A DNA stretch of 57,667 nucleotides. Source: Ancylonema sp. Taxonomy: Eukaryota. Every line of letters starts with the position of its first letter. Within the stretch, counting starts at the first letter, position 1. A model generated the notes under the pieces. It was not told the origin of the DNA. It ran no database searches and worked only from the letters and a program-made list of their open reading frames with translations. Below, piece by piece: positions 9,421 to 52,523 of the stretch. The translations under genes were made by a program, and so were the position numbers. The DNA is taken from NCBI GenBank assembly GCA_050230475.1, contig JBFLGF010000189.1:1-57667 (forward strand). Reading direction: 5' to 3'.

Positions 9421-10043
9421 CAGTGCTCCCTCGATATAACGACAAAAAAAAATCCATAAAAGTGTCGTTATATCGATGTGTCGTTATACACTGTATAACG
9501 ACATATACTACTAGAATCTGAAATCTATGTCGTTATATCGAGGGACTTTTCGAATGAAGCGAAGTGAATAAGCAAATGTGTTTATTATAATGTGTTTATG
9601 ATGTGTTTCTGCCTTGGCATGATTATCCAATTCAGCGTGTGGGTTGATATACGAGCTATACAAGTGCGTCATGATACTACTACATGCGGATGGACAAAAT
9701 ATACCACAAAATTTTAGGAGGAGAGTTGGGGAGGTATTTAGGTTGTTACAAAGCAACACTGGACACGCACATTCTATTGGACCTATATAGAATTCTATAC
9801 AGAATTTGAAGTGCCGTTCTAGATTTTTCTCGATTTCCACACATCGTTATCTGCGAGCAATAGAGTTATAAACACACTACAACGACATTCAGTAACATTT
9901 TTTTGATTTTTTTTGTCATTATATAGAGTGTCGTTATGCTTATATCGAGGGCGATTTCATATTGATTTTTAAAAAGTTCCAAAAAACTGTCGTTATACCG
10001 AGGTTATCGTTATATCGAGGGTCGTTATATCGAGGGAACACTA
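9421..10043. mobile_element. pogo/Tigger-like MITE
   Basis: TIRs CAGTGCTCCCTCGATATAACGAC (9421) / GTCGTTATATCGAGGGAACACTA (10021-10043), preceded by TA, with many internal GTCGTTATATCGAGGG subrepeats. Related ends occur at ~10581-10597 and ~42081-42098. Confidence 0.75.
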
Positions 10044-10827
10044 ACTGCTATTTCTCGCAGATAATGATTTATGGAGACCGCGACAAATTTATGGCAACCC
10101 CGTGAACAACACTCAACGAACTCGAGTGTTTGATTGTAATCTATATTCAATCACGAAAATGTCACAAATCTGGATTGTATTGTGTTTGTTAAAATGTATT
10201 TTGAAAAAAATGTTTCATTTCTCTTCATGACAAGTATTGGTGTGCCCTGCCTACCAAAAATGTATATGGTGTCCATGTCTATTGTGTTTGTTGCTTCGTA
10301 TGACTCATGATACTCCAACTCCAACTCTCCTCGTAAATATGTTTGAATATATTTGATGTATCATTCTCATTACAAAGTTGTATAGGTTGTATCACACCAC
10401 ACACGTTGAATTGGATGATGATCCCGAGGGAACGCATTCTAGGCAACATGTAAGCAAGTTGCTTCATTTATGGCTTTCCGCGATACAATGACACTGATTT
10501 CAACATCTACAACAATTTGTCGTTGTGTATAACGTCAGCTCGATATAACAACAGGTTTTTCTCTCAGTATTTTTTCGTTCTATCGAGGGTTACTGTATGT
10601 CGAATCTGAATGATTTCCCGCCCTGTCGACGCCATTATGGCGTCGCCATATGTAGGAGGAGCTTTCGGATTTTCGGTATTCACCTTCATATTTTCCTTTA
10701 TATAGTCACCGAGTCGTATGCTGTCAAAATGAAGGAGAGGACATTCCTAATGGTTTCACTGTGGGGTGTCCATGACGTGTAGTTTTGCTTCAGTACACGC
10801 CCACAAGATGACCCGTCCTCCATAGGT

Positions 10828-14527: not shown

Positions 14528-16135
14528 TGGAGCACAGGATTCTCATCTCCTTTTTCTCTTTAAAGCATTGCTGACCAGGGATAAAATCTAATTGCATATA
14601 GGAACATTGGTAATGTGTTGTAGACATGTATGGGCAACGGCTGGTGTAATGTAGACCCTCATTTAGTCCTGGGTGGTTCGCCGCACATCAGGACTGGTGT
14701 CGTCTGAACAACAATATAGTGTGAGTTTAGGCTTCCTATCACATGGTGTTTAGTGCTTGGGAAGGCGATCAAGAATTGGTAGGTGTGTGGAGGGCGGGGT
14801 TGGTAGGTGTGCGGTGGCTTTGCATAGGGTTCCGAGCATGTGTTGTTGTTTCACATTGTATCGCAAATAAAAGCTTGAGCTTTGCATATTTAGTCTCTTT
14901 TCGTTTGGATTTACACTTGGGATGGGGTTGACTTGCCTCTAGACTAAATAATGCTAAAAATGTTCGGGTTATTATAATTTGTGTTGAAAATCTGAACTTC
15001 ACGAGGGAGTAAAAAGGGTGACGCATTCACCTTTTCACCAACACGTTTGAACAAGGGGTGATGAATAGGAAGCAATGAGATAGCAATCACTTCTAACGAG
15101 GGTGGTCTCACGAAGATTTCACAAGCTACTACTCGGTGAAATGCTCAGTGTAATGATCTTTGAGTGTCGAGTTTATACAACTCAAAATACAACGTCTTCA
15201 ATATCTGTGATGGCTTAGAGGAGCACGCCAAAGAGAAGGTGAGCGTGAAATTCAGCAACAATGAGAAATCGAGTGGAAGTGGTCGTCAAAGAGGAATTGT
15301 CTAAGCGGTTTTTGCACATTCCAAGTTTCATCTTCATCTTTTCATCCGATTTAGACTGTGATAACGAATCAAATTTCTTTTGCAAATCCCCCTCTATCCA
15401 CCCCAATGAGTTCACATGGCGCGAAATCGAACAATATTATTGACGGATTTCACACCCATACCGTTTTTTTGTGTTTGGGTCATTGACATGTGTTGTGGGA
15501 GTTTGGTGTGCCAAGAGCATGTAACTTGGAGAGGTAAGAAAACATCAGTAGGACCTTTGGGATCCTTGTTTTGTAGTTGAAACATGTGTCAACGAAATGG
15601 TGCCCTCCGCTTTAGTTTCTCGATCTCATTGGATAATGTTTGGTGCACAATTTTACAATTTTGGTGCCATACATATCTGATTTAGCAGTTAGTGTTATCA
15701 CTATGTCGTGATTTTGTCCTCAATTGATCATAATCATCATGGTCATCCGTTTTTGTGTTTTTTTTTTTCAATTTGCACCTTTCGAGAAAGTTACATGTAA
15801 TTCGCACATTGTTTCGATCAATTTACATACTAGCTTTTCCAACCATCTTCTATTCCTGCTTACAATTTGAATTTTGACTCACACTCCTCTTATTTTTCCC
15901 TCGCTATAAAAAAAAGTGCTTTGTGTGCAATCGTGCATGTATTGCCAATTCTTGCCTTTGGAATATTGACTTCAATAGCGTAGCTTACATAATCTTCGAT
16001 ATTTTCGAATTTCTTGTTCAGTCTTAATTCCTATAAGTAAATCATCTCGTACGAATCCCACGACCACACATGTGATACGTGTCAACACAGTAATTTGAAT
16101 TTGAAGTATAGTTGCAAGTCTAAGGAATGCATATA

Positions 16136-16372
16136 CCGTAGTGGCCACACATAATGACCCGCAAATAATTATGAGAAGGGTGGGTCGGGTCAAATTAAAT
16201 AATTCATTTTTTATAAAAAGTGGGTCATTTCATAATATGGGTCACCATATAACAAATATTTCCAAGGATTTTGACAATTTTCTTTTGGGTGCGCGGGTTG
16301 GGTCAAGTGGTGGTTTTTAAGCTAAATTAATTCGTTTTAAAAAACCCGGGTCATTATGTATGGCCACTACGG
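16136..16372. mobile_element. MITE family A, copy 2
   Basis: TIRs CCGTAGTGGCCACACATAATGACCCG / CGGGTCATTATGTATGGCCACTACGG. Reverse-complement homolog of 7958-8185. Confidence 0.8.
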
Positions 16373-16854
16373 GATGTTGTGTGTACACATTGAACACATA
16401 TGTTACAAAAACAATAGTATTGGGGACGAGAAAAAAACTAGTGGTGTCTTGTGACGATATGAACGATGCAAAACTAGGAATGTTGGAAGGTGCGAAACAG
16501 ATGAGGTGGGTGGTTCTATATTATAAACGTGTGCGGTACAACACAAACATAGGCACTCAATGTCCCGATTTGGTTACTTCGTCAAAATTAAGTATTTGTC
16601 TATTGTTATCATCGGGTGTCCCACCTCGACATTCTAAAATGTCCTAAATTATTGACAACAACATTGTAATCAAGGCTGATTCTGGTGAGAGTGTACTACT
16701 ACGATCAGGATTCCGATTTTGAAGGACATCAAGACAAGGTAAATCGAGATTCTTTGGATCGGACATCTAAACATTGGGGTACCAAAGGTTGAATATAAGA
16801 TTGCTAACTACATTGACAACCGTGTTTGATCACTGCATTGTAAAAAAAATGCAT

Positions 16855-19505
16855 TCACGTGGCAACCTCTCGAATGGCGGAAAGCGGAAGAGAGGCAAGT
16901 ATCTCCGGAGGCCATGGGTTGTGTTGTCGAGATTTCACCGTCTTCAATGCTCGCCACACAACACTCCCGCACTTAAAGCCGCTACCAAAGGCGATTTGCC
17001 ACACCCGGTCGCCTCTTTTGACCCGACCCTTCGCCTCGCAATACGCTAGCTCGTACCACACGGAAGCCGAAGAAACGTTTCCGAATCGATAGAGCGTCGC
17101 AAGGGAAGGCTCCATGTGGCGATCTTGGAGCCGCAAGTTCGCTTGCATCGTATCAATAACACTCTTTCCGCCCGCGTGAATGCAAAAGTGTTGGAAGGCC
17201 GTCGTGAAGTCCGGCACGTACGACTTGGCCTTGCGATTGAATATGCGCTTGTGAAAAGAACGAAAGACAAAGCGGAGTTGCTCCGAGAATGGCAAGACGA
17301 GTGGGCCAAGCACGGTGAGGTTCATCTTCACAGCCTGTGGATTAAAAAATTTAAAAAAAAAAAAAAAACAAACAAAAACAAGACAAAAACTTTTGAAACT
17401 TTGTTTATGGAAAGCTTGCATCTTCAATAACATAGGCTATTGAAAAGAAACGCAAGCATCCTCATTCATATGATTTTCTTATGTATTCTAGGGAGGGTAA
17501 ACGTGGCTTGACAAAGTATAATATTATGGAGACTCAAGACACGTACATATTCTGTTTTGCATGATCATATCGTTGATACTCGGATCGTTCATTTGCATCG
17601 GGATACTTCATTTACACCTCGGTTTACTTAATCTCTCGGGTCTATTTTAACAACCGTACTCACTTTTATATTTGTTTTTTAGAAAAGGAAGGCCTCTTTA
17701 GGCAACCACGCGAAGTTTCATGTTTAATTTGTAAAAAGGAGGCCTCTTGAAGCAAGCTTTCATCGATAACATTCATAGCTAGCATCGATAATATGCATAA
17801 CTTTTATTGATTGCCACCATTATTGGAGACGTCGTCCCCTCTTATCATCCCAAAAACGTGAAGCGGGGAAGTTTTGTAAGATAAATCAGTTTGAAGCAAG
17901 GGTCTAGTGGAAATAAAATTCACCTTGCCCGCGACTCCCATGAGCGACTTGGAGATTGACACGCCGAGCTCCCCATCTTCGTCCTCCTTGGCTTGGACGC
18001 ACGCGTACGCGTCGTCGTCGGCCCCACAATGCGTCCGTACGGTGTGAAGGAGTTGGTACTTGGCCCGCCGTCGATCTTGGGGGCGGTTGGAGAGGAGCAC
18101 CGCGGAGCAGCCCATGCGGAAGAGACAATTGGTGATGAGCATGTCGCGCCGCTTGCCAAAGTAGTAATTGCGCGAAATGTTCTCCGTGCTCACCAAGAGT
18201 GCGCGAGAATTGGGGTGATTGGCCAAAATGTCTTTGACTAGACCGACACCCAGCATCGATGCACTGTCACAAGTACGAGGAAGTATGTAAAAATATTGGT
18301 AAGATACGACGGGAAGACAAGAAATCAAAATAAAAGGATGGCGTGGATTTTCAGCACTTCCAATTATGTGCCCATCGATACATATTTGTAAGGGATTTCC
18401 AATCAAATTGACCAGATGTACTTTTCGGTCACACATAGCTCAAGATGCACACCGAGGTACTTGCTGATTACGTCAAAGATCTAAAGACTTTGGCACTCAT
18501 GGTTTGTGATCCACGAGCACAAGTTGTTTGCTTTGAAGATCCAGCAAGCTTTTCTAAGGAGGGTAACAAATTTTGTATGATACAAATCAGCAAGACACTT
18601 ATGTTAGTATATGATTTGTCAAACCGGAAGGTGCATGTATATCACCTGCATCCCATGCCTCCCAGATTGTAGGAGATAACGGAGCTCTTGAGTTTGAAGT
18701 GGTTGACGACCATGGCTGCAAGGGATGGCATTGGGCAGAATAGAGTGCAATTGACAATCACAATGTCGATCTCGCAAGGCTTCAATCCCGTCCGTGCGAT
18801 CAGATCCTCCACCGCGTCAAACACGACCGTCTGCGCCTCCCGATTGGCCGCACCAACCGACCTGTCGGGTGGCACCATCCGAAATTCTAGCGGGACGTAC
18901 GTCTCTTGTCCGAATCCAGACTTCTCCATGACCTTCATCTGGAATTCGCGGCTGGCGTCATCAAATGCATCGTTTGTAGCGATCGAATCCCTGAAATTCT
19001 CGTACGACAACTTCATTCGTTCGTCTTTTGGAATGCAGCATCCAAAATCGATCAAGTACACCGACCGGTTCCCCCCCCGTACAACCCAGCACGCCAAGAG
19101 ACCAGCCACGAAGCTTCCTAGAAGCAGAGCACCGATCGGCACATTACTGACGATCCTCCCACTCCAATATGTGCCATCTACTTTCGTCCACATCTGTGGA
19201 TCAGCATCGATGGTTTCCGGTAGCGGCTTCGCAGAAAAGTAGACGACGGGGTATCCAATGAGGTACTCCTTGGCAACTTCACCCAGGCTTCCTATATTAG
19301 ATTTCTCCCACCTGTCTGATATCGATCCCCACAAATTCTGGGCTTCGGTCGCGATACTATCAATAGACACATCTCGCACGCCCAGGGTTGGCCCAATCCA
19401 CTTTATGTACGCAGCCACTGTCAGGATAATGAGCGTAGCATTCCGAATGGACCACCAACTCTTGGCAGGTCCAGGACCTACAGTGCCGCCACTTTCTCAT
19501 GCCAT
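16855..19505 (-). CDS. KCS: 3-ketoacyl-CoA synthase (FAE1/KCS-type very-long-chain fatty acid condensing enzyme), 3 exons; 5' end ambiguous
   Basis: Exons 19505/19418-18646, 18263-17924 and 17334-16855 give hydrophobic N-terminal segments, [36 protein letters not shown] (catalytic Cys), [23 protein letters not shown] (His), RFGNVSSAS (Asn) and [11 protein letters not shown]. The best-context ATG (19505) is followed by an in-frame TGA at codon 3. Confidence 0.9.
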
Positions 19506-20693
19506 TGTTTTTCAGAGCTGAATGACAGAAAGCTCTGACTTTCCACGAGTGCTGAATGGGAAGCGTTGACTATGCAGTGCCGAAAGCTCATTGAAGTGTC
19601 GAATTCGTGGCTAGTCATTCCACTGCATATAAAACACCGCAGTCAGAAGCTGGAGTGACGTAGCCTCGTGTATACGCCTCGTGCAACAAGAGTGTCCCGA
19701 CGGTGGAAGATCACTTTTGTGGTCCACGTCGACATAGCTACTTTCCGTCCCCTTCGAAGATATCCACGACCGAGTACAGGAAGATGGGTTCTGTGCACAG
19801 GAGAGGTTATCGTTAATATTTATTAACTGGGTACTGATTTCAACGGGATCGTTCGGTACGACAAGTTTGTTTATGCTATCGAATATGTCTCGCGGCTCCT
19901 GCCGTACATTACGCACCACTCGACACCTCGTACCCATCAATGTGCAACCTAGAGTGCTCCCCGGCTTGGATTCTGTAAACATCTGTATATTTTGTTCCCC
20001 CCCCCGAGAAAATGACGTGTTTTCATGTTGGTAGACTCTACCAACGTATCGGTCGGTATTAGGGCGGACACACCAGTTCAATAAATATCTATCGATTTCA
20101 GCATCCTGTCGGTGGGAGGCGGTAGAATTACACATGGGGTCCACGTGGGGTCCACGTCGTACTATTTGTCTCATCTGGAACATCAATGAAACCGCGGTCG
20201 TTCATTGCCGCCGATTCGAGGTGAACGGATGATTCAAAGTGCGTCAGAGAGAGCATTTTGTCGATGGACGGTCCAGACCAAGAACAATCAATGATGTGGT
20301 CGCACGTCCGCCGCTGCCGTTAAAATTTGATTTCTCCCAGTTTTTCCACGTTGAATTTCCAGGGAATCCTTTGTCGTACTTAGGGTTGTCAGCGAATGAC
20401 ACGTGTTTGGTGTAAGGATGTTTTGTCGGTAATAACAAGATACGTCTGTCGAACTTTCATCGAAAACAAATCATCCGTGAAGGGGCTGGGAGCCTAGAAT
20501 AACACTCCTGACGTAGACGACAACTCGACATTATCGACACTGGTATACGGTGCGTCGCTCCAGAGAGCTGTGATATTCAAAGGTACTCTATCTCAACTCT
20601 CAGTAAGAACATGATGGTAGAGTTGTGCTGATCCAGAAAGGTGTTACATCTGCGAGAAGTATACGTTGTGTCAATTCAGTTGCAGAAGTCAAG
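19506..20693. promoter_or_regulatory. Candidate bidirectional promoter between KCS and FAAL-ACP-PKSIII
   Basis: The ~1.2-kb head-to-head spacer contains G-box CCACGTGG (20141-20148) within a short CACRTGGGGTC tandem, GACACGTG (~20398) and several other ACGT cores. Function is inferred only. Confidence 0.4.
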
Positions 20694-23600
20694 ATGCCTC
20701 CAAATGGAACGAGCGCTTTGATCACTCAAGAGTCTCCAACTTCAGAAGTAACCAAACCTATATCCCTGAACAACCGTCCCAAGGTCTCTAATGGAAGTCA
20801 CGATTCGGATCCAGAGCTAACAGAAACAAAAGAAGTGGCTCCCAACGGCATCGGGGATGTCGACCCGTCCACATCTCATCAATCTGCAGTGTATGGGCTG
20901 GATCAGACTCGTCCCGGCCCCACGGACGTTCCGGACCCCCGAAAATGGTCCCCCCCACCCTTCGTTTCCCCCCTTCCAGTCGAGGAGCGCCCAGAATGGC
21001 TGCGCGACGAATGTCTTCCGTTCTTGACTCAGTTTGACTTTCATGTGAAGCGGAGTCCCGATAAGAATGCAGTCTCGTGGATCGAGGACAGCGGTCAGGT
21101 GTCCCGATCACTCACGTATTTGGAGTTGCAAGCGCGGTCATGCCAGGTGGCGAGCTGCTTGGCCTCCAAGTGGCGTGCCAAAGAAGGAGATCGCGTTCTC
21201 CTCGTTTACCCCCCGGGACTCGATTTTCTTGTTGCCTTCATCGGCTGTCTCAGAGCGGGTAGAATTACAGGCTCCGTCACTGAAAAATTGATCCCTCCAC
21301 CCAAAACCATATTTCTCAAATTGTCTAGCAATGCATTCGACTAACATGATTTCACGTGAATGGCGTTTCCGAATGTGGACTATGCGTGACCGTGATGGTT
21401 TTGAGTGAGCTCTCCACCTGATTTTGAATAGAAGAATGGTAATATATAAGCTGAATATTTTGTTGATAATATGATCATGGTTTTGTTGATCTCTGGAAGT
21501 AAGAGGTGCCCACAAATGACTACAATGGACCACATAGCAATGCAAGTCAAACTGAGATTCGCCTCGCCGTTTTTGTGAGTTTTGTGATTCATAAAATTTG
21601 AATGAATCAAACAAATGTGGTGCATTAAAAAGATAAAAAAATAAAAATACATAAATGAATAGAGTCGTACAATAATTTTTGGCTTGTCGTCGATTCTTTT
21701 CGATAATTTGCAATTTGGTCCCCTTCATCCATTCCGAGTCTGAACGAAACGGATTTCGTTTGTGTGAGAAGGTAACGTACGGGTTCCCTTAAAGGTTTAT
21801 TTATTTAGCAAATATATCCTTGTCGAATATACAGGGGTCATCGCCGTGCCGGTATATCCCCCCAACCCGATGGATCTCCGCACCGATATTCCAAAGCTGC
21901 GGAAAATAGTGAGCGACTCGGGATCGAAGTTGGTGCTCACAACACGGCTCTACATGAGCGTCCTTCACGCATCCAAGCTGCAGTTCATGACCTGGCCCGG
22001 GGATCGATGGGTCACTACAAATGACCTGCCGGTGAGTAACACGGAGTATTGGAATATTGCACCGTTATTGGGCACATGTTTCTTGAATTGGAAATGAGTG
22101 AATCTCTCCATCCCTGATGATAAGGTGAAGCTTCGTCCCTGACATCGACACCGATATTCAAGGACACACATACTCGAGTGCGTAAAAAACGTTGTGCACT
22201 TGTTCGTTGCAGGATCCGAAAAAATCATGGAAGGCTCTAGAAGTGGTGGAAAAGGCGACCGCGCAAGCCGAGGTTGACGCTTCAGACAAGAGTATCGCTT
22301 TCTTGCAATACACGAGTGGATCGACTAGCGACCCTAAGGGCGTTATTGTCGGTCGTTGTTCCATCGCTCACAACAACATGTTCGTTAGACGGTACGTCGA
22401 CAACGCACCCTCATTCAAGGATGCTCCCAAATTCTCTGAACACAGTCAATGATTTTTCGCTTCCCGAAGCCGTGAAATTGATATTTCAAATTTATCAAAT
22501 TCTGAATTTAATCCGGGGGATCGTCCGTGTATGGTTGGTTTTCAGAACTCTACGGATCGACAGCGAGAGCCGTTTTTTGAGCTGGTTGCCACAGGTCAGT
22601 TTTGACCCTCCTTTCTTCCTTTCGTTTAAAGCATATGTACTACCATGTTTGGCCGAATATCTTGGTTGCTCTTGAATGATTCAGTTATACGAGTATAGTT
22701 TACTGTGCAACCTGCTCATCGATAGCATGTCATCGTTATGTGCTCTGAGATTGAGCTCGTTCAAGACCTAAATCAATTATCATGTAGGTCGATTACCTAG
22801 GGCGATAACTCCGTAGGTATTTTGATCCTTGGATTATTATATGAAACATATTGCAACATTCCAGTCCTGAACTTTCACGTCGTTGCATGACCAATTTACA
22901 CCAAGTCATGTGAGTTCAATATATCTATCTGGAAAGTCAATGATTGCTGACTCATCGTACACCTAACTGGAAAGTAAAACTCGATGATTGCTGACTCAGT
23001 GTGATATTCGTTGCGCAGTATCACGACATGGGCCTCATCGTCGCTTACCTCACCACTCTGTCTGCGGGCGCATCCGGTTTCTACCTTTCTCCAATTTCCT
23101 TCATTCAACGGCCCGCAATGTGGATCCATCTCCTATCCAAACATCGCATCACGCATTCCGCCACCCCTAATTTCGGTCTCGAGCTGTGCGTTCGGAAATT
23201 CTCCCCTGAGCGGGACATTCCGGCGGACGGTCTGGATCTATCTACAGTGGAATGCATCGTCAATGGAGCAGAGCCCGTGCGCGTCGAAAGCATGGTGAAG
23301 TTCAACAAGGCGTTCTCGCCGTATGGCTGGCATCCTTGCGCCATGTGCCCATCATACGGTTTGGCAGAAATGACAGTAGGGGCTACTGCATGGGGTAGCA
23401 AAATGGTAGTGGGACCCCCCAAATGTGGCGGGGAGATATCGATCCAGCAAGATGGTCAAATCGAGACCGTCCACAGTAGCGGTGATCTGGCCGCGAACCC
23501 TCCAGAGCAGGGTCATGCACGAAGCATCGATCCTGTCACGTGCGAAGAGCTACCAGACGGGGAGGTTGGCGAGATATGGATTCGCAGCCCTTCTGTGGCG

Positions 23601-26600
23601 CTTGGATATTGGCGAAAAGAGGTTCTCACACGAGAGATGTTTCACGCCAAGGTTGTCAAGGGCCTGACCAGCTCGCCTTACTTCGGCAAGGATGACATCT
23701 CGTATCTCCGTACGGGCGATCTCGGCTTCATTCTGGACCAGCAACTTTTCATCACTGGGCGCATGAAGGATTTGATAATCCTGAATGGTCGAAACTTCTA
23801 CCCCCAAGATCTTGAGCGCACGGTCGAGAAATCAGATTCTGCTATTCGGCCTGGATGCGTAGCCGCAGTCTGCTTCGTGGGTCCCACCGGCCAGGAATCG
23901 GTGGCGATAGTGGCAGAAGTCAATTCTGCCAAAGTCGGGGCGGCTAGGCTAGTGGAAGTGTCGATGGCAGTTCGTCGTTCAATCGGAGCGGAGCATCGGA
24001 TTTCCCCAACTGTCGTTGCAATCATTCCGCCGCGAACCGTAAGGCTCGCATCCAATTGACTTCCGATGAATTCGAATATATTGTAAAGGCTAATAAATAT
24101 ATTTGTTTTTTACATACACCTTTTTGTTCTTTTTTCGATGGTTGTAGAACAATGTTCAAAGGAGGGGAAGGATTTTCAATGAAAGGATGTATACATACGT
24201 TATCGTGTTTTGAATCTTTCTGAAACCATATGTGTCGATGAACATGAATAAGGAATCATGTCAAAGGGATCGACACGGACTCGATCGATGGTTGAGCCAA
24301 ATGATAGATGAATACACAATATGTATTACTACGTTCCGTTAACTCCATGACTATGTAATGACGTCAAACTTTCCTTGGTGCCAGATTCCCAAGACCACGA
24401 GCGGTAAAATTCGTCGAAGTGAGACGGGCAAAAGGCTTGCAGCTGGAAAACTCACCATCCTCAACACAACTACTTCCGGTCTCAACAAGGTAACAACGAT
24501 GCCGCATCGATTATTACATAAGAGGGGAAAAAAATTAACAAAGCGGCATGCATTGATGCTATTTCAATTCCCATTCGATCCTCCATGACCCCCAATAACA
24601 TTGCATCTCGATAATGCCGCCTCGCTTGCCCCTCTTCTCAGGGCACCAATACTACCAACCCCCCCACCACCGCCTCAAGCAACCCCTTGAACCCTCTCGA
24701 GTCTCTTCTCAATTGTTGGCAACAACTTTTTGGGGGCCCCACTGTCGCTCCCACCAACAGCATCGAAGCGGCCGTGCTTGATATTCTAGGAGTGCCACCT
24801 GGCACAAAGCTTCGGGGTAGTGATACTCTCTCCTCATTAGGCCTAACAAGTTTGTCTTCTGTCGAAGTTGCCGAGCTCATTCAAGATCGGACCGGAAAAT
24901 TGATCCCCCTCGAGCAACTATCGGCATTTTCACTAAGCGACATCCGAAAACTGAAAGGTGCAAAGCCGAAGGAGGCGACGATGGATATCACATCCAAATA
25001 TACTCAAGCGTCCGAGGGACAAGGGCTCAAACCGATTGCAGGCATTCTATCGTTTGGGACCGCCAACCCAGAGCAAGTTCACACTCAAGCTGTCTTCGCC
25101 CGAGACTACCCCAACGCGGTCAATATGGACGCCGAGTCAAGAATTAGGTTCAACAAAATTTGTAAGATCATCCACTCCTACCTGGTCTCTTGACATGGCG
25201 ATATTGAGGGTGGGATCCAAATTGTAGTCATTTTTGTTACTACAGTAACATAGATAATGCCAACAACCAGGGCATATTCAATGCGAGATTCACGCGTATT
25301 CAACGCAGATTCACGATTCAAAAAAATATTCAAACTTGTGCATGAATATACTAGTGCATGAATGAATGGTGATTGATCGGGCTAACTAGAGCTCAACAAT
25401 TTTCAGGCGAGATGTCCGGAATCGAAACTCGGCACATGGCTATGGAGGAGACGGTAGTGGAAGCCAATCCGGATCTGCGCATCTATGGTCGCCCCTCCCT
25501 TAAGGCCCGCCAGGACATTCTGGCGGTTGAAGGCCCCAAACTCGCACACGAGGCATGTGCAAAGGCATTGGCAGCGTGGGGTGGGCCGAGGGAGGCCATC
25601 ACTCACCTCATTGTTGTGACAGTGAGTGGGGTCCACTTGCCGGGAAGTGATTTGGCGCTCACCAAATCTCTCGGCTTGCGAAATGATGTCGGTCGCGTTA
25701 TGTTGCACATGTTGGGATGCTACGCTGGGGTCACCGGACTCCGTATTGCCAAGGACTTGGTGGAAAACAATCCTGGCGGTCGAGCGCTCGTTGTGTGTGT
25801 TGAGCTTAACAGTCTCATTTTCCAGGTACGCGAAATGGAAATAACAAGGACAACAAACTCATTTCCCATATCGTTGTGTGTCCTACTTTCTTTGATGAAC
25901 ATGTTTACGTTCTGATGCGACCGATGGCACACATTTTAACTATTTTGCATTGAGCTCAATTTCGGACGCAATAACCAAATCGTGTGCCTCGTGTCGGGTG
26001 TAGGCTCCTCATGATTCCCTCCCGGACAGTCTTGTCACTGCTGCTATCTTCGGAGACGGGGCAGCAGCACTTGTGATTGGTGCGGGCGACCTGCCCCCTA
26101 CCACATCAGCTTCTGCCCCCCTTGCGACCGAATCCCCTCCCATCGACGAGATTGTTGTCGCTCGCACCACCTATGTTCCTGAGAGCGAAAGACACATCGC
26201 TGGAGATCTGACTGAAGCAGGGCTACTGGTGCATCTGAAGCGGGAAGTGCCTCTGGTGCTCCCCCAACCTGTCAAGGACTTTTCGACGCGTCTCTTGAGC
26301 ATCGCTGGGGCAAGCTTCGAGGACAGCTTTTGGGCGGTGCATCCTGGAGGACGGGCGATTCTGGATGCTATTGAGAGGAAATGCCAGCTGGCACCTGACC
26401 AACTCGCAGCGAGCAGGTGGGGAAACCTTATAATCTCAAAAATTAGCCTGATTGTCTGCTTTCAAATTTGTGTACCACTCATGTCTTTTTGTCTGCAAAA
26501 TATGCTGACCAATTCAGGAATTTATTTTCAGGGAGGTGCTGCGGCGTTTTGGTAACATGTCGTCAGGCTCCGTCCTATTTGTGCTCGATGTCATGCATCA

Positions 26601-43269: not shown

Positions 43270-44900
43270 TACAGCCGTACGACATCGTGGAGCATCGCCA
43301 GGTTAAGGGTGAGATGATCAGACGCGCCAGAATCAACCAGAATCTTGTCGTGTTCTGGTATGCACACCAGCGCCTCGGTGTTAAACATGCAGCCCTATGA
43401 CACTCCCGCTTCCTCAAAATTTGTCGTCTTTTTGACCCGCCTCGGCTACTCACTGCTCCTCTCCTTCCCCCTATCATCCGTCGCTGACGATTTCTCCTTC
43501 CCCGCCTTCTTCATCCGGAAGGTCACCTCGAGGTGGCCCGTGGCGTGGCAGAAATTGCAGGCGAGGTGTTTCTTCGGGCAGTCAGGCTTCAGATGATCTG
43601 GACTGTCGCATCCGAAACAACGAAGCTTGAGGTTGCTACCGCTGCCCCTTGGGCCCCGCCCAGGGCCGCCCCCACCCCGCCCACCTCCTCGTGAGGAGCC
43701 ACCAGTGCCACGTCCGCCACCTCGACCGCTCCTACCGGCACCAGATACATAAAACGTCTCGTTAGCCACGTAAGCATTCGACTTCTTTCCACCCACAAAT
43801 TCATCAATTCTATCCGCATCCTCAAAGTGCTCGAAAATCTCATTCAGCGTAGGATTTGCAACAGACGAAAGAAGTTTGACTTGCAACGCCCATTGGGGGG
43901 ATGGTGTTGCAAGGAAAGCGGCAGCCAAGAGTTCCTCCGTCAAACCCTCCACCGAAGCCGTTCGGGCGTTGATGACGAGCTGAAGGAACCCGCGTTGTAG
44001 AGTAGCGGCAGTATCCGAGTCACTCATTTCGAATGATATGAGCGCCCCAAGGGCAATCCGCTTCTCTGCTATAGTCCGCTTGTTGTACTTCTGGTCTAAG
44101 CGCTTCGGCGCTTCGAAAGGATCCGAAAGATCCCGGATCTCCTCCAGATGGTAGACGTCAAGGATTTGATGTAGACAGAATAGAAGTTGTGCCTCCTTCA
44201 CCTCGAACGTCCTCCTCAAGGCCTCCTTGGCCTCGATCTCCTCTTCATTCAAAAGTCGCCCCACAGTACCACGAGGGGCATCCGCTGGCACCGCGTCATG
44301 GACTTCGGGAAGGCGAGGCGGTCTTGTCTTTGAACCGCTGGCTATGCCCGCATAGCCCTTCACCCTGCTGAACGTGTAGAAGACCAACTCCCATGTAGAC
44401 CAAGTCTTTTGGCCCGTTAGTTTTACTGATACGCCCTGTGCTCTGATACCAATGGATGTATTAGCTTGATCTAGCCCTAGATCCATAACTCAATACAATT
44501 GCTCTCAAGACTCAAATGAGAAGTATGATCTCCTGTTCTTTGTGTGATGGATTTATAACCATGAACTCATAATCATTGAGAATAAGCACCAATACTCAAT
44601 ACTCAAAGAATGTGTCACTTCCAAAGAAAAATGATAGTGTGCAAAAGAGATTTCTCCAAGTTGTTAATAGCTCCATGATAAACAAATGAAATATATAGGC
44701 AAAGACAATTGCCTAGAGCTAATGTCGAAATGACTTAAGTGGCTCCTTCCCTATGACAAGGCTACTTGTTGTCATTCATACAAGACATCTAAGCCACCCT
44801 AGCTTGTAGTGATGCCTATGCTTGCCATATGTCAAATATTCCACCCTATAATCTTCGCCACCTAATCATAATTCATACATGACATACATGTGTCAAATAC
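43270..44900 (-). mobile_element. Truncated Ty1/Copia LTR retrotransposon (5' LTR, tRNA-iMet PBS, gag, start of protease)
   Basis: PBS TGGTATCAGAGC (44451-44440), adjacent to an LTR ending in CA at ~44453. Gag ORF with an RGG-rich tract and zinc knuckles CFGCDSPDHLKPDC and CNFCHATGHLEVTF. Beyond two in-frame TAGs, the same frame gives the Copia protease motif ILVDSGASDHLT (Asp at 43334-43332). The outer LTR boundary is approximate. Confidence 0.85.
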
Positions 44901-45264
44901 GTGGCATGTTTACATGCAAAGGTGTCAAATTTTGACACCTTATTGCCACCTCCTTATAATTTGGACACCTCATGTGCCACCTCACCCAAAAACGTATTTT
45001 GCCCTCCAAAAAAAACAGAAAACAAAATACCCTGGTGCATAATATTAAGGTCGACAGCCGAAAGGTAAACTTTCGAGTAGAAAGTTCGGTTGTCAAACGG
45101 AGCGTTGACAGATGACTGAGCGTTGACAGATGTTGATTGATGGATTAGGTTTGTTGGTTCAGTTAGAACGTCAACAAGTGGTTGCGCGTCGTTATCGTAT
45201 TGGCTCGGTACGAGCGGTAACAGATCAGTTATGGCTTAGTAAGAGCGTCAGCAACGTGGTAGAC

Positions 45265-45494
45265 GGTTAGGACTGGCTCAGTAAGAGCGTCAGTACTAAG
45301 ATGTGCTGGTAAACAATCAAGTTTACAGGCTGGCTCAGTAAGAGCATCAGCAGAATACACAAGTAATGACAGGAAGTTGCGAAGGTCACTTCGGTCAACT
45401 TACAGAATTCGTCGACGGTAGTCGCACGAGTAATCGTAGACAAGACACGAAGATGATGGCAAGAACTGGCGTCAGAGGATACAATTGACACGAT
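45265..45494 (+). repeat. ~230-bp direct repeat, copy 1 (copy 2 at 50991-51240)
   Basis: GGTTAGGACTGGCTCA(G/C)TAAGAGCGTCAGTACTAA...GGTCACTTCGGTCAACTT...GATGATGGCAAGA...ATACAATTGACA is shared by both copies with scattered substitutions. Confidence 0.9.
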
Positions 45495-46011
45495 TTTGAG
45501 AGAATATATTTTGAAAGTTTATTGACGGCGCAATCAGACAGCGGAAGCTAGCAGATATGTACAAAAAAATGCCTTTATGCTACGATCGTCTAATCGTAAA
45601 AACTAACTAGAGTTAATCGACATGGTAAATCGACAGGTTGTACTCTAGAAATCTCTATTTAATCTTGGCGCTACAAATTCAGACGTCAAGTATTCTACGG
45701 CTGGATTTTATCGCCGGGATAATATCGACAAGTCGGAAAAATCATCGTCGATAACAAAGTTGCGCGAAGCGCTGAAAAATCGACACGCAATCTAAAGTGT
45801 ACGACTGCTGGATATTACACTCGGAAAAATACGCCACGCGTTATTTTCGAGTTTACAAAAAGTTGTTGGATTTTGCGGAGTACTGATTCTAACTTCACAC
45901 AAAATCATGAAATCTTTATATCGATTGCTTCTAACAAGGTATTTTACTAGAGAGGTCTGGATATTGTCATAAAGGGGTTTTACCCTTAACGATCTCTAGC
46001 GTCATGACAGC

Positions 46012-46127
46012 TGACGTGCGGTTTGGAGTCGGTTGCTCATGATGGGTTTCTGTATGTGGGGGTATATCTCTTTACTGGTCTTGGTGTCGATGTCGATAGT
46101 AGACGTAGTATGGCTCCGCTGCTCTCA
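46012..46127 (-). repeat. Short (116 bp) 3' LTR of the Gypsy element, with polypurine tract
   Basis: On the minus strand it reads TGAGAGCAGC...CCGCACGTCA (TG...CA), immediately preceded by a G11 polypurine tract (46138-46128). Confidence 0.75.
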
Positions 46128-49100
46128 CCCCCCCCCCCGAGTTGTGGAATTCTCGTGGAAGAGCTGGGTATTTGGAGCAGCGTCATCGTGGTGGTGAGGA
46201 CAAAACCATTGTCCAACAAGAATGCTAGGTAATGGAGGACGAAGGCAGTAGATGTGATAGCCGTCGTTGCAGTTATCACCGAGAATGATGTTGCGTTCAT
46301 CTTTGCGGGATCCGCATTGACGACAGAATGTAGGGTTTGCGCTGTTGAAGCGGCTCACGTCAATTTCATCATCCTAATGCTGAGGCTACATGGTGATATG
46401 TTGGCCATTTGCTCCCAATATTCTTCGTCCATCTTTGAATGTATCCGGAGGGACGGATTTGAGTGATCTTGAGTATTTGTGGGTGAGTCTTTACATCGAG
46501 AGTCCCTTTGGTCTGGCGTTTTGACAGTTGCCGCGCACCATAAACAAACTGTTTGCGGTGAAAGCGTGGTTTTGCTCTGGCCTTTGCTCTAGCCCAGTTG
46601 CCACTATGAACTCGGAAGTATTGATGTCGATCTCTTTGTTGTGCTATGGCGAGGTTGCGCATAGCAAGAGGCATGCCTTCCTCAAATAGTTTGCTGCGTT
46701 CGTGAATGAATTGTGGTAAGTCACGTAGTGCGTCGGGTAAAGGGTCATTTTCAGCTTGTTGGATTTGAGATTGAAAGATGGGGTGTCTTCCATATAGTAA
46801 ATAGTATAGGCTTGTTTGGTCATGCGGTAACCCATGGCTACGTATGGTAGGTACAGATCCCAATCTGTGCGGTGTTCTTTGAGTAGTATTTTGCGTAGAG
46901 AAAGTTTCATGGTTTGTACCATGCGTTCAGCTAATCCATCTGTTGTAGATGTTCTCTGGCTGCAGTGCGGTGTGTGATGTTGTGTCCAGCTAGTAAATTG
47001 GTGAAGGAACCTTCAAATTCTGCTCCTTGATCAGTGTGGATGTCTCCTGGTGCACCAAATCTGGAAAGAACATTGTATGATAGTGCGTTGGCTGCGGATT
47101 TGGCAAATTTATCCTTGAGTGGGATGAGTTCCACCCATTTAGTGAAGTGTTCAACAAAGATCATGACATAGATATTGCCATGTGTGGATGTTGGTAATGG
47201 TCCTGCGAAGTCGACTCCCCAACGGTAAAATAGTCCACGTATAGGCAGAGGTTGTAGTTGTATTCTTCCTTCTGCAAATGTGCCTTTCGAGCGTGAACAG
47301 TTGGCACAGTCTTTGATACACTGAATGACTTGGTCACCCATTCCGTGCCACCAATAGTCTTGTTGAAGTGCATGAAGTACTCTTTTGACACCAAAATGAC
47401 CATCGAGTGTGCATGGTCTTGATCAATGGTAATCTTTTTGGTGGTGGGGGTACAATTTCAAATGTCCGGTGTGGGGTATTTTGTATACATATCTCCCCAT
47501 CCAGCGGTATTTGAGTGCTCGGCGGTATGCCCGATCCTTTTTTTGTTGGTTCAGAGTTGGTATGTATTGGTGGGTTTTGAGTAATGTCATGGTCGCATTA
47601 TCATCCCAAATGTCAACTTTGAGGTCTTCAGGTTGTGGTATTTTCTGGTGGTAACTGAGGTAGTATGATGGTGATACTTGAATAGTTGGGGATGTCTGGA
47701 AGTAATAACATGGTGTTTTCTCTCCCAATGTCTCAATCTCATGGTTTTATGTGGTGGTTTCAGGTAGTGAACATCGGCTACATCCATCCGCGTTAGAGCT
47801 TGCAATGCCGGGGCGGTGAATAACCTAAAATTCGTATTCTTGGAGTAGGAGTGCCCATCGTGCCAATTTGCCCGTAAATTTTGTAGTAGTCATAATCCAT
47901 TTGAGTGGAGCATGGTCAGTGATCAAGTAAATGGTTTGCCAAATAGGAATTGTCTGAAGTGTTGTGCTGCCCAAATGACTGCAAGACACTCTCCATGGAA
48001 GCTACTATAATTTTTCTATGCGTTGTTGCAGCTGCGGGTGGCAAATGCGACTGCATATTCTTGTCCTTCGTTATCAACCTGACTGAGTACCGCACCTAAT
48101 CCATGAGCACTCCAATCGGTAGCCAGAATGTATGGTAAGTTGGTATCAAGTCGTCTAAGGACAAGTTCAGAGCAGAGCCTGTTTTTGAGTTCTTTGAATG
48201 CAGTATCTTGAGAGTCATCCCAGTGCCATTTGACATCACCTTTGAGAAGTCCATTGAGTGGTGAAGCAATACTGGAAAAGTGTGGTACAAATTTTTGGTA
48301 GTAAGAAAATAGTCCAAGGGCTGCTCGTAGTTGGTGAATATCCATGGGTGCAGGCATATCCTGGATTGCTCTGGTTTTCTCATCTTGTGGTGCAATACCT
48401 TTACCTGAGATCTTATGTCCCAAGAAGTCCATCTCATCTGCAAAGAATAAACATTTGCCTGGATGACATTTGATTTTGAATTGTCGCAAGCGGTGAAACA
48501 CTTGACGGAGATGTTGAATGTGGTCGTTGAAAGTGCTGCTCTAGTTGCTAATGTCATCAGTATAGCACCGGGAGTTGCGAAGACCAGCTGAAATGCGACC
48601 CATAGTGCGTTGGAAGAAAGGAGGTGCGTTTTTCAATCCATATGGTACAACATTCCATTCATACAGTTGACGGTCTGCTCCCCAAAATGCAGTTTTACAT
48701 TTGTCTTCCTCAGCGATTGGTATTTGGTGGTACCCTTGTCGTAAGTCCAGTTTGGAAAAGATCTGAGCATCCTTCATATCAAGAAAAATGTCCTCAATGC
48801 GTGGTAATTGATATCTGTCCTGTTGTGTTTGGTTGTTGATAGGGCGGTAATCTCCACATTGACGATAGTCTGTGTAGTTGCCTTCTTCATCCTTTTTGCG
48901 AACAACGACTGTGGCGGAAGCGTAATGGTTGCTATCATCGCTTTTTCGAATCATACCAAGTTCCAGAAGTTTTTGTCAGTTGCCGCGCACAAATCCCCAT
49001 TCTGTTTCAGACAGGCGGTGTGAGTTTTGGAAAATTGGTTGTGTAGTTTGGTGTGGTATTTCCATAGGTGTATGCTAGAAGGTAGTAGTTCTTCTAAAGA

Positions 49101-49519
49101 GAATGCGAATACATCTATATTTTCCTCGAGTAGTTCAATAACTTGAAGTTTTTGTTCCTTTGTCAAATTATTGTCTATCTTCCATGTAATTGGTTCGATC
49201 TCTGTGGTAAGATTGTTGTCGTGAGGTTGAGAAATGACATTATCATCTGTAACCGTGGTAGATTGATAATCAGTTTCAAATAATAGTGCCTGAGTCATGG
49301 AGATAGCGTGGTTCCGAAGTTGTGGTTCATTGTTTGGTACAATGTGTGCATAGTCATGGTTTGGGTAAAATTTTGATGTTTGGTTATCATAGTGAAGTGT
49401 ATGATATGCTTGTGGTATTTGGTTGTTGCCCCCCCCCCCCTATCATTGGTCGAAATGGTGGGGTTTGATTCCTATGGGAGGTTGTATGATGGTATTGCAT
49501 GAGTAGCCATAATCATGCC

Positions 49520-50490
49520 TCCTAGCCATGGCCATGTTGCGATCCATAGTTCTGCCCAACATAACTTTACGTTGGTCTTCCGTGATTCCTGGCACATGTA
49601 TCGCCGTTGTCAATCCCATGAGTCGTTCCCGTTCCTAGACGTTTGCTTCTTCCCAACGATGTTGTGTGTCAACATTGTAAAGCATGCCTGGTCCTGGTTC
49701 TTTCCATCGTTGAAAAGTGAACTGGTAACTGCCTGGGTAAGACACTAGAGTAGGTAATGCTCGGCGAGGTTGTCCAATTTTGTTAATTGGTGTAAATGGT
49801 GGTTTGTCATCGGTCAAGACCTTGTTAGGTCTGTGGTGTGGTTCCAGTATGTTGTCCAGAGGTGGTTAAGACCTTGTTAGGTCTGTGGTGTGGTTCCAGT
49901 ATTTTGTCTAGAGGTGGTAGGTTGGGTACATGTGGTATAGCGAGTTCCAGAATGTTTGGTGCCAACCAGTTGGTCCATAAACAACGAACTCTGTGTGCGG
50001 TACTACCAAAGCTACATGTATCGACAACTGCTGGAAAGCCTAGAAAAGATTTGATGAGAGTAGTGGTATCCTGTACCTCTTTGATGAGGTCACAGAATGG
50101 GTATGTGTTTTCAAGAACGAATACTGGTGGGAATTTTTTGCGGTCGTAGTATCCTTTGCCTTGTCCTGCCTTGTTGATCATCTGGCAGTCCCATCCTGCA
50201 AATATGAAGTCGATTGGTCCTCGTTGTGCAATGAGTTTGTCCAAATCATCGTTGGATATTTTGGAAATATCATGATCGAGACGTGTGTCAAACCCTTTGA
50301 TTGCACTAGTGGGTAGTAGTCCGGGATATCGAGTTTGTATCTTTGGTAAGAAAGCTCTGGTTACTCTCGAGCATCTTCATCGATACCTGTGTTGGTGTAG
50401 GTGCCAATCTTTTTGCCTTGTTCGACAGTCATTATGGCTCCACTGCAACTCATGCCCCCAAATGGTTCCCAAACATGTAGTCCATTTTGC
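49520..50490 (-). pseudogene. Retrotransposon-borne DNMT3/DRM-like C5 cytosine methyltransferase domain (disrupted)
   Basis: Motifs occur in canonical order: I-like LHVWEPFGG; IV-like GPIDFIFAGWDCQMINKAG; VI FVLEN; VIII AHRVRCLWTN; IX-X ERERLMGLT...TEDQRKVMLGRTMD. Broken by frameshifts, a TAG at 49635-49637 and a 52-bp tandem duplication. Confidence 0.8.
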
Positions 50491-50990
50491 AGTGCTTTGG
50501 GGTCAAAACGTGCGGTGTAGTCTGGTGTGATAGGAACCGCGTTCACGAATTGGTACACCCTTCCACTCAGTCCATGGTGGTAATGGTGATGTGTTGGCTT
50601 TGTCAATAGCATTGCGTAGGTAGGAAGCGCTGTGAATGCGTAGAGTATTGAGGCGGTTAGTTGCATGGTGTTCGTTAACTTGGTTCAGACATTTCGCTGC
50701 CATGTTCAATTGTGGTCGAATGGCTTGACGAATATCCGTGTGTTTGGTAGTGGCGAGATAGACCATGGTATTGGTTTCCCATTCTTGCAAGTTTGGTTCG
50801 TATGGTTGTTCTTGCGATGCATCAGATGAGTATTCTGGTTCGTGCAAACCATGTTTGGCAATATTGAATTCAAATGCGGTGAGTACATCATCGTCCTCAA
50901 AAGAATAATAACGCAAGATTGGGTTCTTGCATGAAAGTATCTACAGATGAAGTATATTTTTAAACAGATAGGTAACAGAATAAAAAGATA

Positions 50991-51240
50991 GGTTAGGACT
51001 GGCTCACTAAGAGCGTCAGTACTAATATGTGATGGTAAACAATCAAGTTTACAGGCTGGCTCAGTAAGAGCGTCAGCGGAATACACAAGTAATGACAAGT
51101 AGTTACGAAGGTCACTTCGGTCAACTTGCCAAATTCGTCGACGGTTGTCGCACGGGTAAGCGTAGACAAGACACGGAGATGATGGCAAGATTTGGCGTCA
51201 TCCTAGAGTTGCAGAATTCAGAGAATACAATTGACAAGAT
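50991..51240 (+). repeat. ~230-bp direct repeat, copy 2
   Basis: Homologous to 45265-45494, with a ~19-bp insertion near its right end. Confidence 0.9.
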
Positions 51241-51432
51241 AAATAAATAAATAAAAAATCTGAAGATTTTATTCTTTTTCATCAATTATCCTTTCCAGAC
51301 TTTATATTGTTGATAGTAATTGTCGACTAGCCCTCGGCGTCAAGTAGTGTTCCACACATTCACGCACGAGAAAGTGTGATAGAATTAGCGTAACACCTAG
51401 TTCTCAGCAGAGACTCAATCTGCAACCCTTAG

Positions 51433-51595
51433 TGAGAGGAGCAGAGCCATACTACCTCTACTATCGACATCGACATCAAGACCAGTAAAGAGATACATCA
51501 ACAAACAGACCACCAAGACCACACCTTGATAACCATGTAACTCAGATATACCCCCACAACCTCATTATAAGAAACCGACTCCAAACCGCACGTCA
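51433..51595 (+). repeat. Second LTR copy of the same family, in inverted orientation
   Basis: TGAGAGGAGCAGAGCCATACTAC...TATCGACATCGAC...AGTAAAGAGATA...AACCGACTCCAAACCGCACGTCA matches the reverse complement of 46012-46127, with an internal insertion. Confidence 0.8.
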
Positions 51596-51760
51596 GGGCT
51601 GGGCTCCACGGGCTCGCATCAGCAGGTCATAGGAAATGCGATTTTCGCGGCCAGCGGCTTGCCTCTCAAGGGCCTGAATATGACGTCAAATGTGGTCGGG
51701 TAACCGAATTATATGACGTCACATCAGTGGCAAGAGGCAGCGTCCATAGGTCATGCCCTT

Positions 51761-52200
51761 AGAGCATCCGTTACGGCCTCGCAAATATTTGAGCATAATT
51801 TTGAGATATGCTCGGTGATGATCAATTTATCATGCGGCAAAATGACATGTGCTCCGTTGGCAAACGTTACGGCCTGAGCATTCTGAAGCAAAATATTTGC
51901 CACGTAACAATTGGTTTTCAATTGGTCCGGATGAAACTCTTAAGTTTTCTGCCACGTAAGCGAACCGTACGAGAATCTGATTGGTCCAGAGGTTATGCTC
52001 AACCCGATGATTTACGCAAACTTCTAATCATATTTTGGGAAAATTTGCGACAAGATATGCGTAAATCATCCGGCAGAATGTCCTGAGCATAATAATTTTG
52101 ATATGCGCAGGCCGTAACGTTCGCCATTTTGGAAGATTTGAGCATATTAATGGCAGAAGTCGAAAATCAGGATGATATGCGAGGCCGTAGCGGATGCTCT
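51761..52200. mobile_element. PIF/Harbinger (Tourist-like) MITE
   Basis: TIRs AGAGCATCCGTTACGGCCTCGCA / TGCGAGGCCGTAGCGGATGCTCT in TTA-like flanks. An internal second inverted pair GTTACGGCCTGAGCAT / ATGCGCAGGCCGTAAC is present. Confidence 0.75.
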
Positions 52201-52523
52201 TTAGGGGTACCTTGCCCGTAATTACAAAAGAATAATACAGTAAAACCTGTCTTAATTCAGAATGTCGGAATCGGAAAATATTAGTGATTAAGATAGGTTA
52301 TTCACCTAAGACAGGATCGGTTCCAAATGACGTGAGACCAGTTTCTATGTGAATACAGCGCAGTTTCCCATGGTGTAACCATTCCTTGTTTGAGTTCAGT
52401 GACGTTGTTTCAGGAGTCAAAAAAAAGTCAAATGCCTTCATTACGTTGTCAATAAAGATTCCTCAGATTCCTCTTCAGTGTATGTGGGGTTATCCCCATG
52501 TAATGCCTCTCCTCTAGGAAAAC

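Follow-up and report, generated by a model that had tools for sequence, protein, structure and literature searches.

The capture of DNA methyltransferases (DNMTs) by retrotransposons is on record for Symbiodinium and Klebsormidium (de Mendoza et al., 2018, PMC5890265). The case from Klebsormidium nitens, KnitGypsy-Dnmt3, is a Gypsy element with a DNMT3 in its Pol and with DIRS-like repeats (PMC5890265). A recent preprint counts 'streptophytes (Gypsy-DNMT3)' among the known cases (Fernandez-Moreno et al., 2026, bioRxiv 10.64898/2026.05.21.726589), a 2025 paper places DNMT3 in streptophyte retrotransposons, and a 2019 opinion piece states that land plants such as tracheophytes lack elements of this type. 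The available text of the REXdb paper, which treats Chlamyvir, Tcn1, Phygy and Selgy, makes no mention of a methyltransferase (PMC6317226). The present work deals with a stretch of 57,667 nucleotides from the streptophyte Ancylonema sp. (assembly GCA_050230475.1, contig JBFLGF010000189.1), hereafter called the window, in which a decayed Gypsy element with its own C5 cytosine methyltransferase was found. This element most likely belongs to the published streptophyte Gypsy-DNMT3 kind, and what may be new is the breadth of its clade, an E-C-Q catalytic motif, and a CA-GC-TG junction in its repeats. Our literature search found no description of a Gypsy-DNMT3 from mosses, Zygnematophyceae or chlorophytes.

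The closest described system is KnitGypsy-Dnmt3. Both elements have an unrearranged DNMT3-like domain in a Gypsy Pol, kept catalytic residues, purifying selection (measured here on Sphagnum-type relatives), A-B-A-B repeats, and a streptophyte host. In addition, a K. nitens protein with reverse transcriptase (RT) and PHD domains and no DNMT in its frame (P0068) falls in the same RT clade as the window element. On the other hand, the latter comes from another host lineage and lies in a separate RT subclade (43% RT identity to P0068), and its relatives reach Closterium, Sphagnum, and the chlorophyte Scenedesmus, beyond K. nitens. The PHD finger, the E-C-Q motif, the 4-bp target duplication, and the CA-GC-TG junction go unmentioned in the text consulted of the 2018 study, whose figures or supplement may show them or the domain order (PMC5890265). 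SymbioDIRS-Dnmt3 also combines split repeats with a DNMT3-type domain placed in Pol, occurs in two domain orders, and has DNMT3 domains that methylated CG sites in yeast (PMC5890265). SymbioDIRS-Dnmt3 and SymbioLINE-Dnmt, however, use a tyrosine recombinase or a LINE endonuclease, whereas a DDE integrase is present here, with 4-bp duplications in relatives. The EpiLTRs or DAM-LTRs are likewise Gypsy-type elements which combine a DNA methyltransferase with a histone reader, but their DNMTs have DNMT4 as sister group and are accompanied by DAM and a chromodomain (Fernandez-Moreno et al., 2026), while the window element has a DNMT3-like domain and a PHD, with no DAM seen. Compared with host enzymes (animal DNMT3A/B, plant DNMT3, and DRM), the fold and the motif order I-IV-VI-VIII-IX-X are the same; the element domain differs in its identity of about 20%, in being intronless and inside Pol, in not being permuted like DRM, and in reading E-C-Q or P-C-Q instead of P-C-N. 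The published Gypsy-DNMT record consists of the Klebsormidium case and a passing mention of streptophytes; the present data indicate a large and old clade with two domain orders, mosses and chlorophytes included.

The window holds, on the minus strand from about 50940 down to 46130, a decayed Gypsy pol that begins with a linker and a C5-methyltransferase broken into four pieces, continues with RT, RNase H, and integrase, and ends with a PHD finger (Table 1). In a Pfam scan that covered 16 pieces of the window, RT (E 1e-18), RNase H, the zinc finger and core of the integrase, and the PHD (E 4e-10) all exceeded the cut-off. The order RT-RNase H-integrase, with a DDE integrase, is that of Ty3/Gypsy elements; no tyrosine recombinase family was found among the 16 pieces, which contain an rve integrase instead, unlike DIRS/PAT elements. 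A preliminary description had proposed a Gypsy element with its own C5-methyltransferase, with motifs I, IV, VI, VIII, IX and X in order upstream of RT-RNase H-integrase, and all six motifs were located between 50468 and 49542 on the minus strand. The limits of the element are wider than the span then given, 46012..51240, since the repeats reach 45020 and 51596.

Table 1. Features of the Gypsy-DNMT element in the window (coordinates are window positions).
Feature	Position	Strand	Remarks
3' repeat A, proximal part	45020..46009	-	Begins TGTCATG at 46009, cut at 45020; 45265-45474 matches 50991-51200 at 92%
B/A junction CA-GC-TG (palindrome)	46008..46013	-	Resembles two-LTR circle junction; recurs in Sphagnum-type loci
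Repeat B, first copy	46012..46127	-	Directly behind the polypurine tract
G-run polypurine tract	46128..46138	-	Position identical in relatives
PHD finger, C-terminal end of integrase	46191..46325	-	PF00628 E=4e-10; one zinc ligand altered in window copy
Integrase (H2C2 zinc finger, DDE core, C-terminal part), frameshifted	46440..47420	-	PF17921, PF00665; tblastn
RT and RNase H, with stops and frameshifts	47828..49184	-	PF00078, PF17919, PF17917; 61-62% identity to P0002/P0005
DNMT3-like C5 cytosine methyltransferase domain, four pieces	49500..50490	-	tblastn with relatives' domains, family profile, motifs
Motif X, MLGRTMD	49562-49542	-	
Motif IX, ERERLMG	49634-49614	-	
Motif VIII, AHRVR	49998-49984	-	
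Motif VI, VLENT	50118-50104	-	
Motif IV, AGWDCQ	50199-50182	-	
Motif I, EPFGGM	50468-50451	-	
Linker between (lost) protease and DNMT	50500..50940	-	Matches P0132 from 50802, P0005 from 50691; other copies differ beyond 50944
5' repeat A remnant	50991..51274	-	Fused to linker at the place of the absent gag and protease
Distal repeat A and second B copy	51280..51596	+, opposite orientation	Inverted match of 46011-46128 with 51432-51596; joints to 45020 in other copies

Judged by its sequence, the methyltransferase domain is DNMT3-like, non-permuted, and placed inside the Pol frame; DNMT and Pol share one reading frame in the relatives P0002 and P0005. The PF00145 match that the preliminary description had proposed as a check failed for the window copy, as no DNMT piece passed (at best E=0.32 and 10.8 bits against a cut-off of 22, from one of the four pieces), while unbroken relatives exceed the same cut-off with 32-45 bits. 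The identity of the domain comes instead from tblastn with relatives and from a family profile. The DNMT domains of polyproteins that had been found via RT alone match the window at 50540-49536 with E values of 1e-11 to 1e-39, which constitutes an independent test, because the family profile was seeded from matches to one window piece. This profile scored 250 bits on the window pieces when these were joined by reading through with X, whereas 500 shuffles reached 4.5 bits at most; when all six frames of the window were scanned, its top four matches were the four DNMT pieces. Other searches gave little: a single window piece against PDB yielded chance matches only, a word-indexed search with one piece yielded no match, and a search with a 14-sequence alignment recovered only four proteins, none of them from K. 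nitens. Against PDB, the family profile matched DNMT3A/B/C best (E about 1e-20), then DRM2 (1e-11) and HhaI (1e-10). In the same line, the predicted model of the P0005 domain (pLDDT 95) matched DNMT3B/3A with an E of 2e-17, a target-normalised TM of about 0.8, and about 20% identity.

The catalytic residues are almost invariant. Over 106 domain rows, about 16 of which were locus rows chosen by their motif VIII pattern, the Cys of motif IV, the Glu of motif VI, and both Arg of motif VIII are each kept in 105. The position just ahead of this Cys is occupied by Glu in 68 rows, by Pro in 28, and by Asp in four, and the insert after motif I is extended with respect to DNMT3A. The catalytic PCQ had been described as DCQ with the Cys retained; the Cys is indeed retained, but DCQ is not the motif of the element. 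The family of the window copy reads W-E-C-Q, and the Asp is private to this copy, other copies having Glu in 39110 of 39705 of the depth (99%, 32 contigs of X1). The codon of the catalytic Cys varies synonymously among these other copies. Also private to the window copy are the Gly in motif II, a stop, the loss of about 19 codons between motifs IV and VI, and a duplicated stretch of 52 bp at 49812-49915. The dN/dS among copies, another of the checks proposed earlier, was obtained from 16 Sphagnum-type copies and not from the window's own family; it was 0.39 for DNMT, 0.32 for RT, and 0.44 for integrase, values inflated by decay after insertion. A G-rich stretch coding for LGG/MGGG-like motifs lies between DNMT and RT in P0002, P0005, P0027, P0017, and the window (about 49429-49440), and cleavage, recoding, or a central purine tract are possible roles for it.

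The PHD finger of the window has its best PDB matches in the PHDs of CHD4, ATXR5, EHD3, KDM5A/B, and UHRF1, and is also BAZ2-like. The CHD4, KDM5 PHD1, UHRF1, and BAZ2-type PHDs are readers of unmethylated histone H3 tails, and this unmethylated state of the H3 tail guides DNMT3 via its ADD domain. In the element, the PHD would likely dock the integration complex on H3 tails and in this way steer integration.

Regarding function, we consider it somewhat more probable than all other readings together that, in active members, the DNMT methylates CG sites of the element's own cDNA in cis. Action in cis is expected because the enzyme, made as a part of Pol, would be packaged together with RT and integrase and would be the first to meet the new cDNA. 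De novo CG methylation of this cDNA would let the new copy arrive with the CG 'self' mark of the host, which would be a benefit to the element. Across codon boundaries of the window element, 29 CG dinucleotides were seen and 63.8 were expected, a ratio of 0.45, compared with 0.81 in the gag of an adjacent Copia element and 0.89 in host exons. This depletion is consistent with heavy CG methylation, by whichever enzyme.

Several points weigh against methylation of the cDNA in cis or against the family history set out below. The depletion can be explained by host methylation of an old copy, and only one transposon served as comparator; the terminal repeats of the window are not CG-poor (observed/expected 1.41), and in the Sphagnum-type loci the elements (0.46-0.56) show a weaker depletion than the flanking DNA (0.16-0.26). 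Whole-region CG ratios gave no clear support. Glu replaces Pro before the catalytic Cys in most rows, which may affect function. KnitGypsy-Dnmt3 gave no methylation in yeast, a result that its authors called inconclusive (PMC5890265), and the activity of a Gypsy DNMT remains a prediction in every known case. Several close RT relatives (P0003-P0012, P0014, P0020, P0068) have no DNMT in the same predicted protein, so that it may lie in an upstream frame or have been lost; the elements with DNMT before RT are not recovered as one clade with support in the RT tree described below (12% of bootstrap trees); and the link to the Klebsormidium elements rests on RT and architecture. The many unbroken natural domains with PCQ and ECQ make the 2018 question testable, namely whether a Gypsy DNMT methylates its cDNA, and why.

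The best surviving alternative, which we regard as unlikely, is that the DNMT acts as a brake, either by methylating new or resident copies for silencing or by acting on host chromatin in trans, limiting the harm to the host. This option was raised by de Mendoza et al. (PMC5890265), and it agrees with the CG depletion of the element and with a PHD nearest to the CHD4, KDM5 PHD1, UHRF1, and BAZ2 types. However, the family is abundant, as far as the summed depth of X1 can serve as a rough guide, so any brake must be weak, and an enzyme built into Pol should work chiefly in cis, as the same authors argued (PMC5890265). Marginally less likely still is that the domain has been kept for binding DNA or RNA, or for a substrate other than CG sites in DNA (RNA, an RNA-DNA hybrid, or non-CG sites), with E-C-Q mirroring this shift. 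The Pro to Glu change in 68 of the 106 rows, the insert after motif I, longer than in DNMT3A, and the K. nitens domain without DNA methylation in yeast (PMC5890265) would fit such a role, but the S-adenosylmethionine-binding and catalytic residues are almost invariant, the predicted fold is DNMT3-like, and P-C-Q is kept in 28 rows. Methylation of the element's own cDNA thus stays the preferred reading.

Relatives of the element are widespread in the green lineage. A search with RT-RNase H returned 168 proteins, and among the 120 matches listed eight carry PF00145; a search with one DNMT piece returned 279 clusters at 50% identity. Among the 150 of these clusters listed, the DNMT stands behind RNase H or immediately ahead of integrase in 44 and behind a protease in three, and no second domain is seen in 103. 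The order RNase H-DNMT-integrase is found in the chlorophyte Scenedesmus sp. PABB004, and the order DNMT-RT in Closterium; Coleochaete scutata has an RT-PHD relative. In metagenomes, 77 of 80 DNMT loci have another retrotransposon domain alongside, many of them being one site in several samples. The relatives of the L009 type are tied to Sphagnum, because a PPR-DYW gene adjoining the complete element in L009 clusters with Sphagnum proteins. Some elements with the RNase H-DNMT-integrase order carry long extra 3' frames of 490-900 aa with no Pfam match (L001:10364-11830, L008:11450-13831, L006:11043-13766). The cluster of P0014 (226 members, same clade) is filed once under an uncultured Synechococcales cyanobacterium, a filing that most likely stems from plant-lineage DNA contaminating the genome bin. 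Scans with a pattern of this DNMT family gave no relative among eight candidates in viral contigs or among 12 in prokaryote genomes, a weak negative for a viral or bacterial donor; in the Atlas, a phage cluster has the same feature score as a streptophyte cluster.

The descent of these elements was followed in trees of RT-RNase H and of DNMT. A quick first RT tree of 110 rows left the base without resolution. In a careful tree of 35 hand-picked rows, from which the named Chlamyvir, Tcn1, Phygy, and Selgy references were left out, 26 rows (the window, P0002/P0005, P0068 of K. nitens, Coleochaete, Closterium, L009, and the Scenedesmus type) are separated from nine other Gypsy rows with 100/100 support. 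The window groups with P0002, P0005, P0003, and P0009 (100/99), and the Scenedesmus type is one clade (100/100). The subclade of the window is the deepest branch, the rest being supported at only 85/81. The DNMT tree, which is without the KnitGypsy-Dnmt3 domain, divides in the same way as the RT tree. In a comparison of 49 elements, the distances between DNMTs were correlated with those between RTs (Mantel r 0.68, 0 of 2000 permutations).

The preliminary description had left open whether the capture was related to that of Klebsormidium or independent, in another streptophyte. The streptophyte host is borne out by a KCS gene in the window. Five frames of the window were absent from the protein collection searched, and the host differs from the Sphagnum-type loci in its CG observed/expected of 0.84 and its GC-rich exons, which is no more than a hint of an alga. 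On the present sequences a common origin with the Klebsormidium elements fits better than an independent capture, since the RT clade is shared with the RT-PHD protein of K. nitens and with DNMT-bearing elements of Closterium, Sphagnum, and Scenedesmus, and the split repeats agree with those described for KnitGypsy-Dnmt3. That this lineage captured a host DNMT3 independently, without relation to KnitGypsy-Dnmt3, is very unlikely: the two positions of the DNMT in Pol, the deep position of the window subclade with its 85/81 sister group, and the recurrence of DNMT capture in the literature speak for it, but the DNMTs of both positions belong to a single sequence family and have private features in common, their distances vary together with those of RT, and split repeats and PHD are common to the group. 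In the history that we infer, a green-lineage Gypsy clade with KnitGypsy-Dnmt3 among its members would have taken up a DNMT3-type gene once and long ago, and in the chlorophyte branch the DNMT would later have shifted behind RNase H.

Evidence for further copies was taken from the contigs of four runs (three samples, two studies), which cover 30 of the 30 bins of 44400-52400. Family members lacking the domain would, as was remarked earlier, have meant a chance insertion; other copies cover the DNMT, at 0.68, 0.59, 0.76, and 0.86 of the RT-to-integrase depth in the four runs. The terminal repeats are 4 to 9 times deeper than the pol region. The summed depth of X1 on the element is 20,000-60,000, compared with about 110-140 for single long pieces, summed contig depth being a rough guide only and not a copy number. 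On the DNMT stretch lie 1532 X1 contigs, most of them less than 99% alike, and 23 contigs of a run labelled glacier metagenome, none at 99%; run contigs also bridge motif IX/X into the RT linker. Intact relatives had been predicted, and unbroken polyproteins with protease, DNMT, RT, RNase H, integrase, and PHD do occur among the nearest relatives, in other organisms. The DNMT is therefore not a chance insertion, because other copies cover the domain, unbroken fused polyproteins exist, and DNMT and RT distances co-vary. That a host gene fragment entered one copy by accident, or that the assembly is a chimera, could appeal to the rearranged window copy, which no contig spans and which does not pass PF00145, but it has next to no chance of being correct and was refuted by the fused unbroken proteins, by the contigs that link motif IX/X to the RT linker, by the many diverged copies, and by the retrotransposon domains adjacent to nearly all metagenome DNMT loci.

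The repeats of these elements are split. Four loci (L009, L023, L034, and L035) are complete and read A-gag-protease-DNMT-RT-RNase H-integrase-PHD-B-A-B, whereas the A-B-A-B layout of the window was pieced together from matches within the window and from joints in the reads, one of its pieces being in inverted orientation. The plain two-LTR (long terminal repeat) arrangement of Ty3/Gypsy is replaced by a split A-B-A-B; a simple pair of LTRs was rejected, as the upstream copy of A is only partial and B lies in the opposite orientation. In the window, B stands behind the G-run and A starts with TGTCATG at 46009, as in the complete relatives, and contigs continue from there into diverse flanks; loose contig ends at 46009 (agreement 0.35) mark an element end. 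Three relatives, out of nine loci tested, have TG..CA ends with the 4-bp target duplications GGTC, CCAA, and AACC, while the ends picked in the other six were not both true ones. The 6-mer CA-GC-TG, or its C>T/G>A variants, is found in 14 of 14 B/A junctions of Sphagnum-type loci, several of which are one site seen twice. This 6-mer has the form of a two-LTR circle junction, so that, by analogy, the B/A junction may serve as template for both integrase attachment ends. No TGG-type primer site was seen by eye in three relatives, and no tRNA genes were found. Seven loci (L010, L029, L042, L047, L056, L068, and L073) end after the first B (A-coding-B), the right flank of L047 being that of the complete L034; these copies may have recombined or may have been collapsed in assembly.

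Split repeats together with integrase footprints raise the question of how such elements are primed and integrated. A broader proposal, which we put forward only tentatively and hold to be less probable than cis methylation of the cDNA, is that the window element is a branch of an unrecognised and very old Gypsy lineage of chlorophytes, charophytes, and mosses. In this lineage, a PHD and a DNMT3-like ECQ enzyme would rebuild the combination 'read histone H3, write 5mC', replication would proceed without a tRNA primer site, and integration would start from the CA-GC-TG circle-junction template in the split repeats, a route undescribed for integrase-using elements.

By its sequence, the window copy itself is a dead, rearranged relic, as had been stated before; it cannot work, because it has lost gag and protease and none of its pol domains is intact. 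No tblastn match to gag or protease was found anywhere in the window, while both lie upstream in P0002, P0005, P0112, and the L009-type loci; other copies of the window family diverge at 50944. At the frame breaks of pol lie indels which are absent from many of the other copies, and the two A copies of the window differ at 17 of 210 sites. Run contigs contain the opposite-strand joints 45020-51291 and 45041-51280. In other copies, 45020 runs on into the sequence seen at 51280-51596 on the opposite strand, and no record spans the arrangement of the window. The window copy may be inverted relative to its last A-B piece, may consist of two abutting remnants, or may reflect an assembly error.

Several other features lie around the element. 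The cut end of the Gypsy repeat A is abutted by a truncated Copia element (43449-45008, minus strand) with an LTR at about 44458-45008, a primer site, and gag (PF14223). On the other side, at about 51760-52200, there is a MITE-like element with inverted ends starting AGAGCATCCG and with high depth in the runs. Pairs of inverted repeats of the kind that small DNA transposons typically have are found at 7955-8187 and 16134-16375, and at 9287-10824. An intron-containing gene at 20607-26715 (plus strand) has AMP-binding (fatty acyl-AMP ligase-like, FAAL), ACP, and type III polyketide synthase (PKS) domains in a row, with the ACP and the first PKS residues in one open frame (24615-25190), and is likely a FAAL-ACP-type III PKS fusion in a streptophyte. 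The KCS gene (16855-19496, minus strand) adjoins this FAAL-ACP-PKS-like gene.

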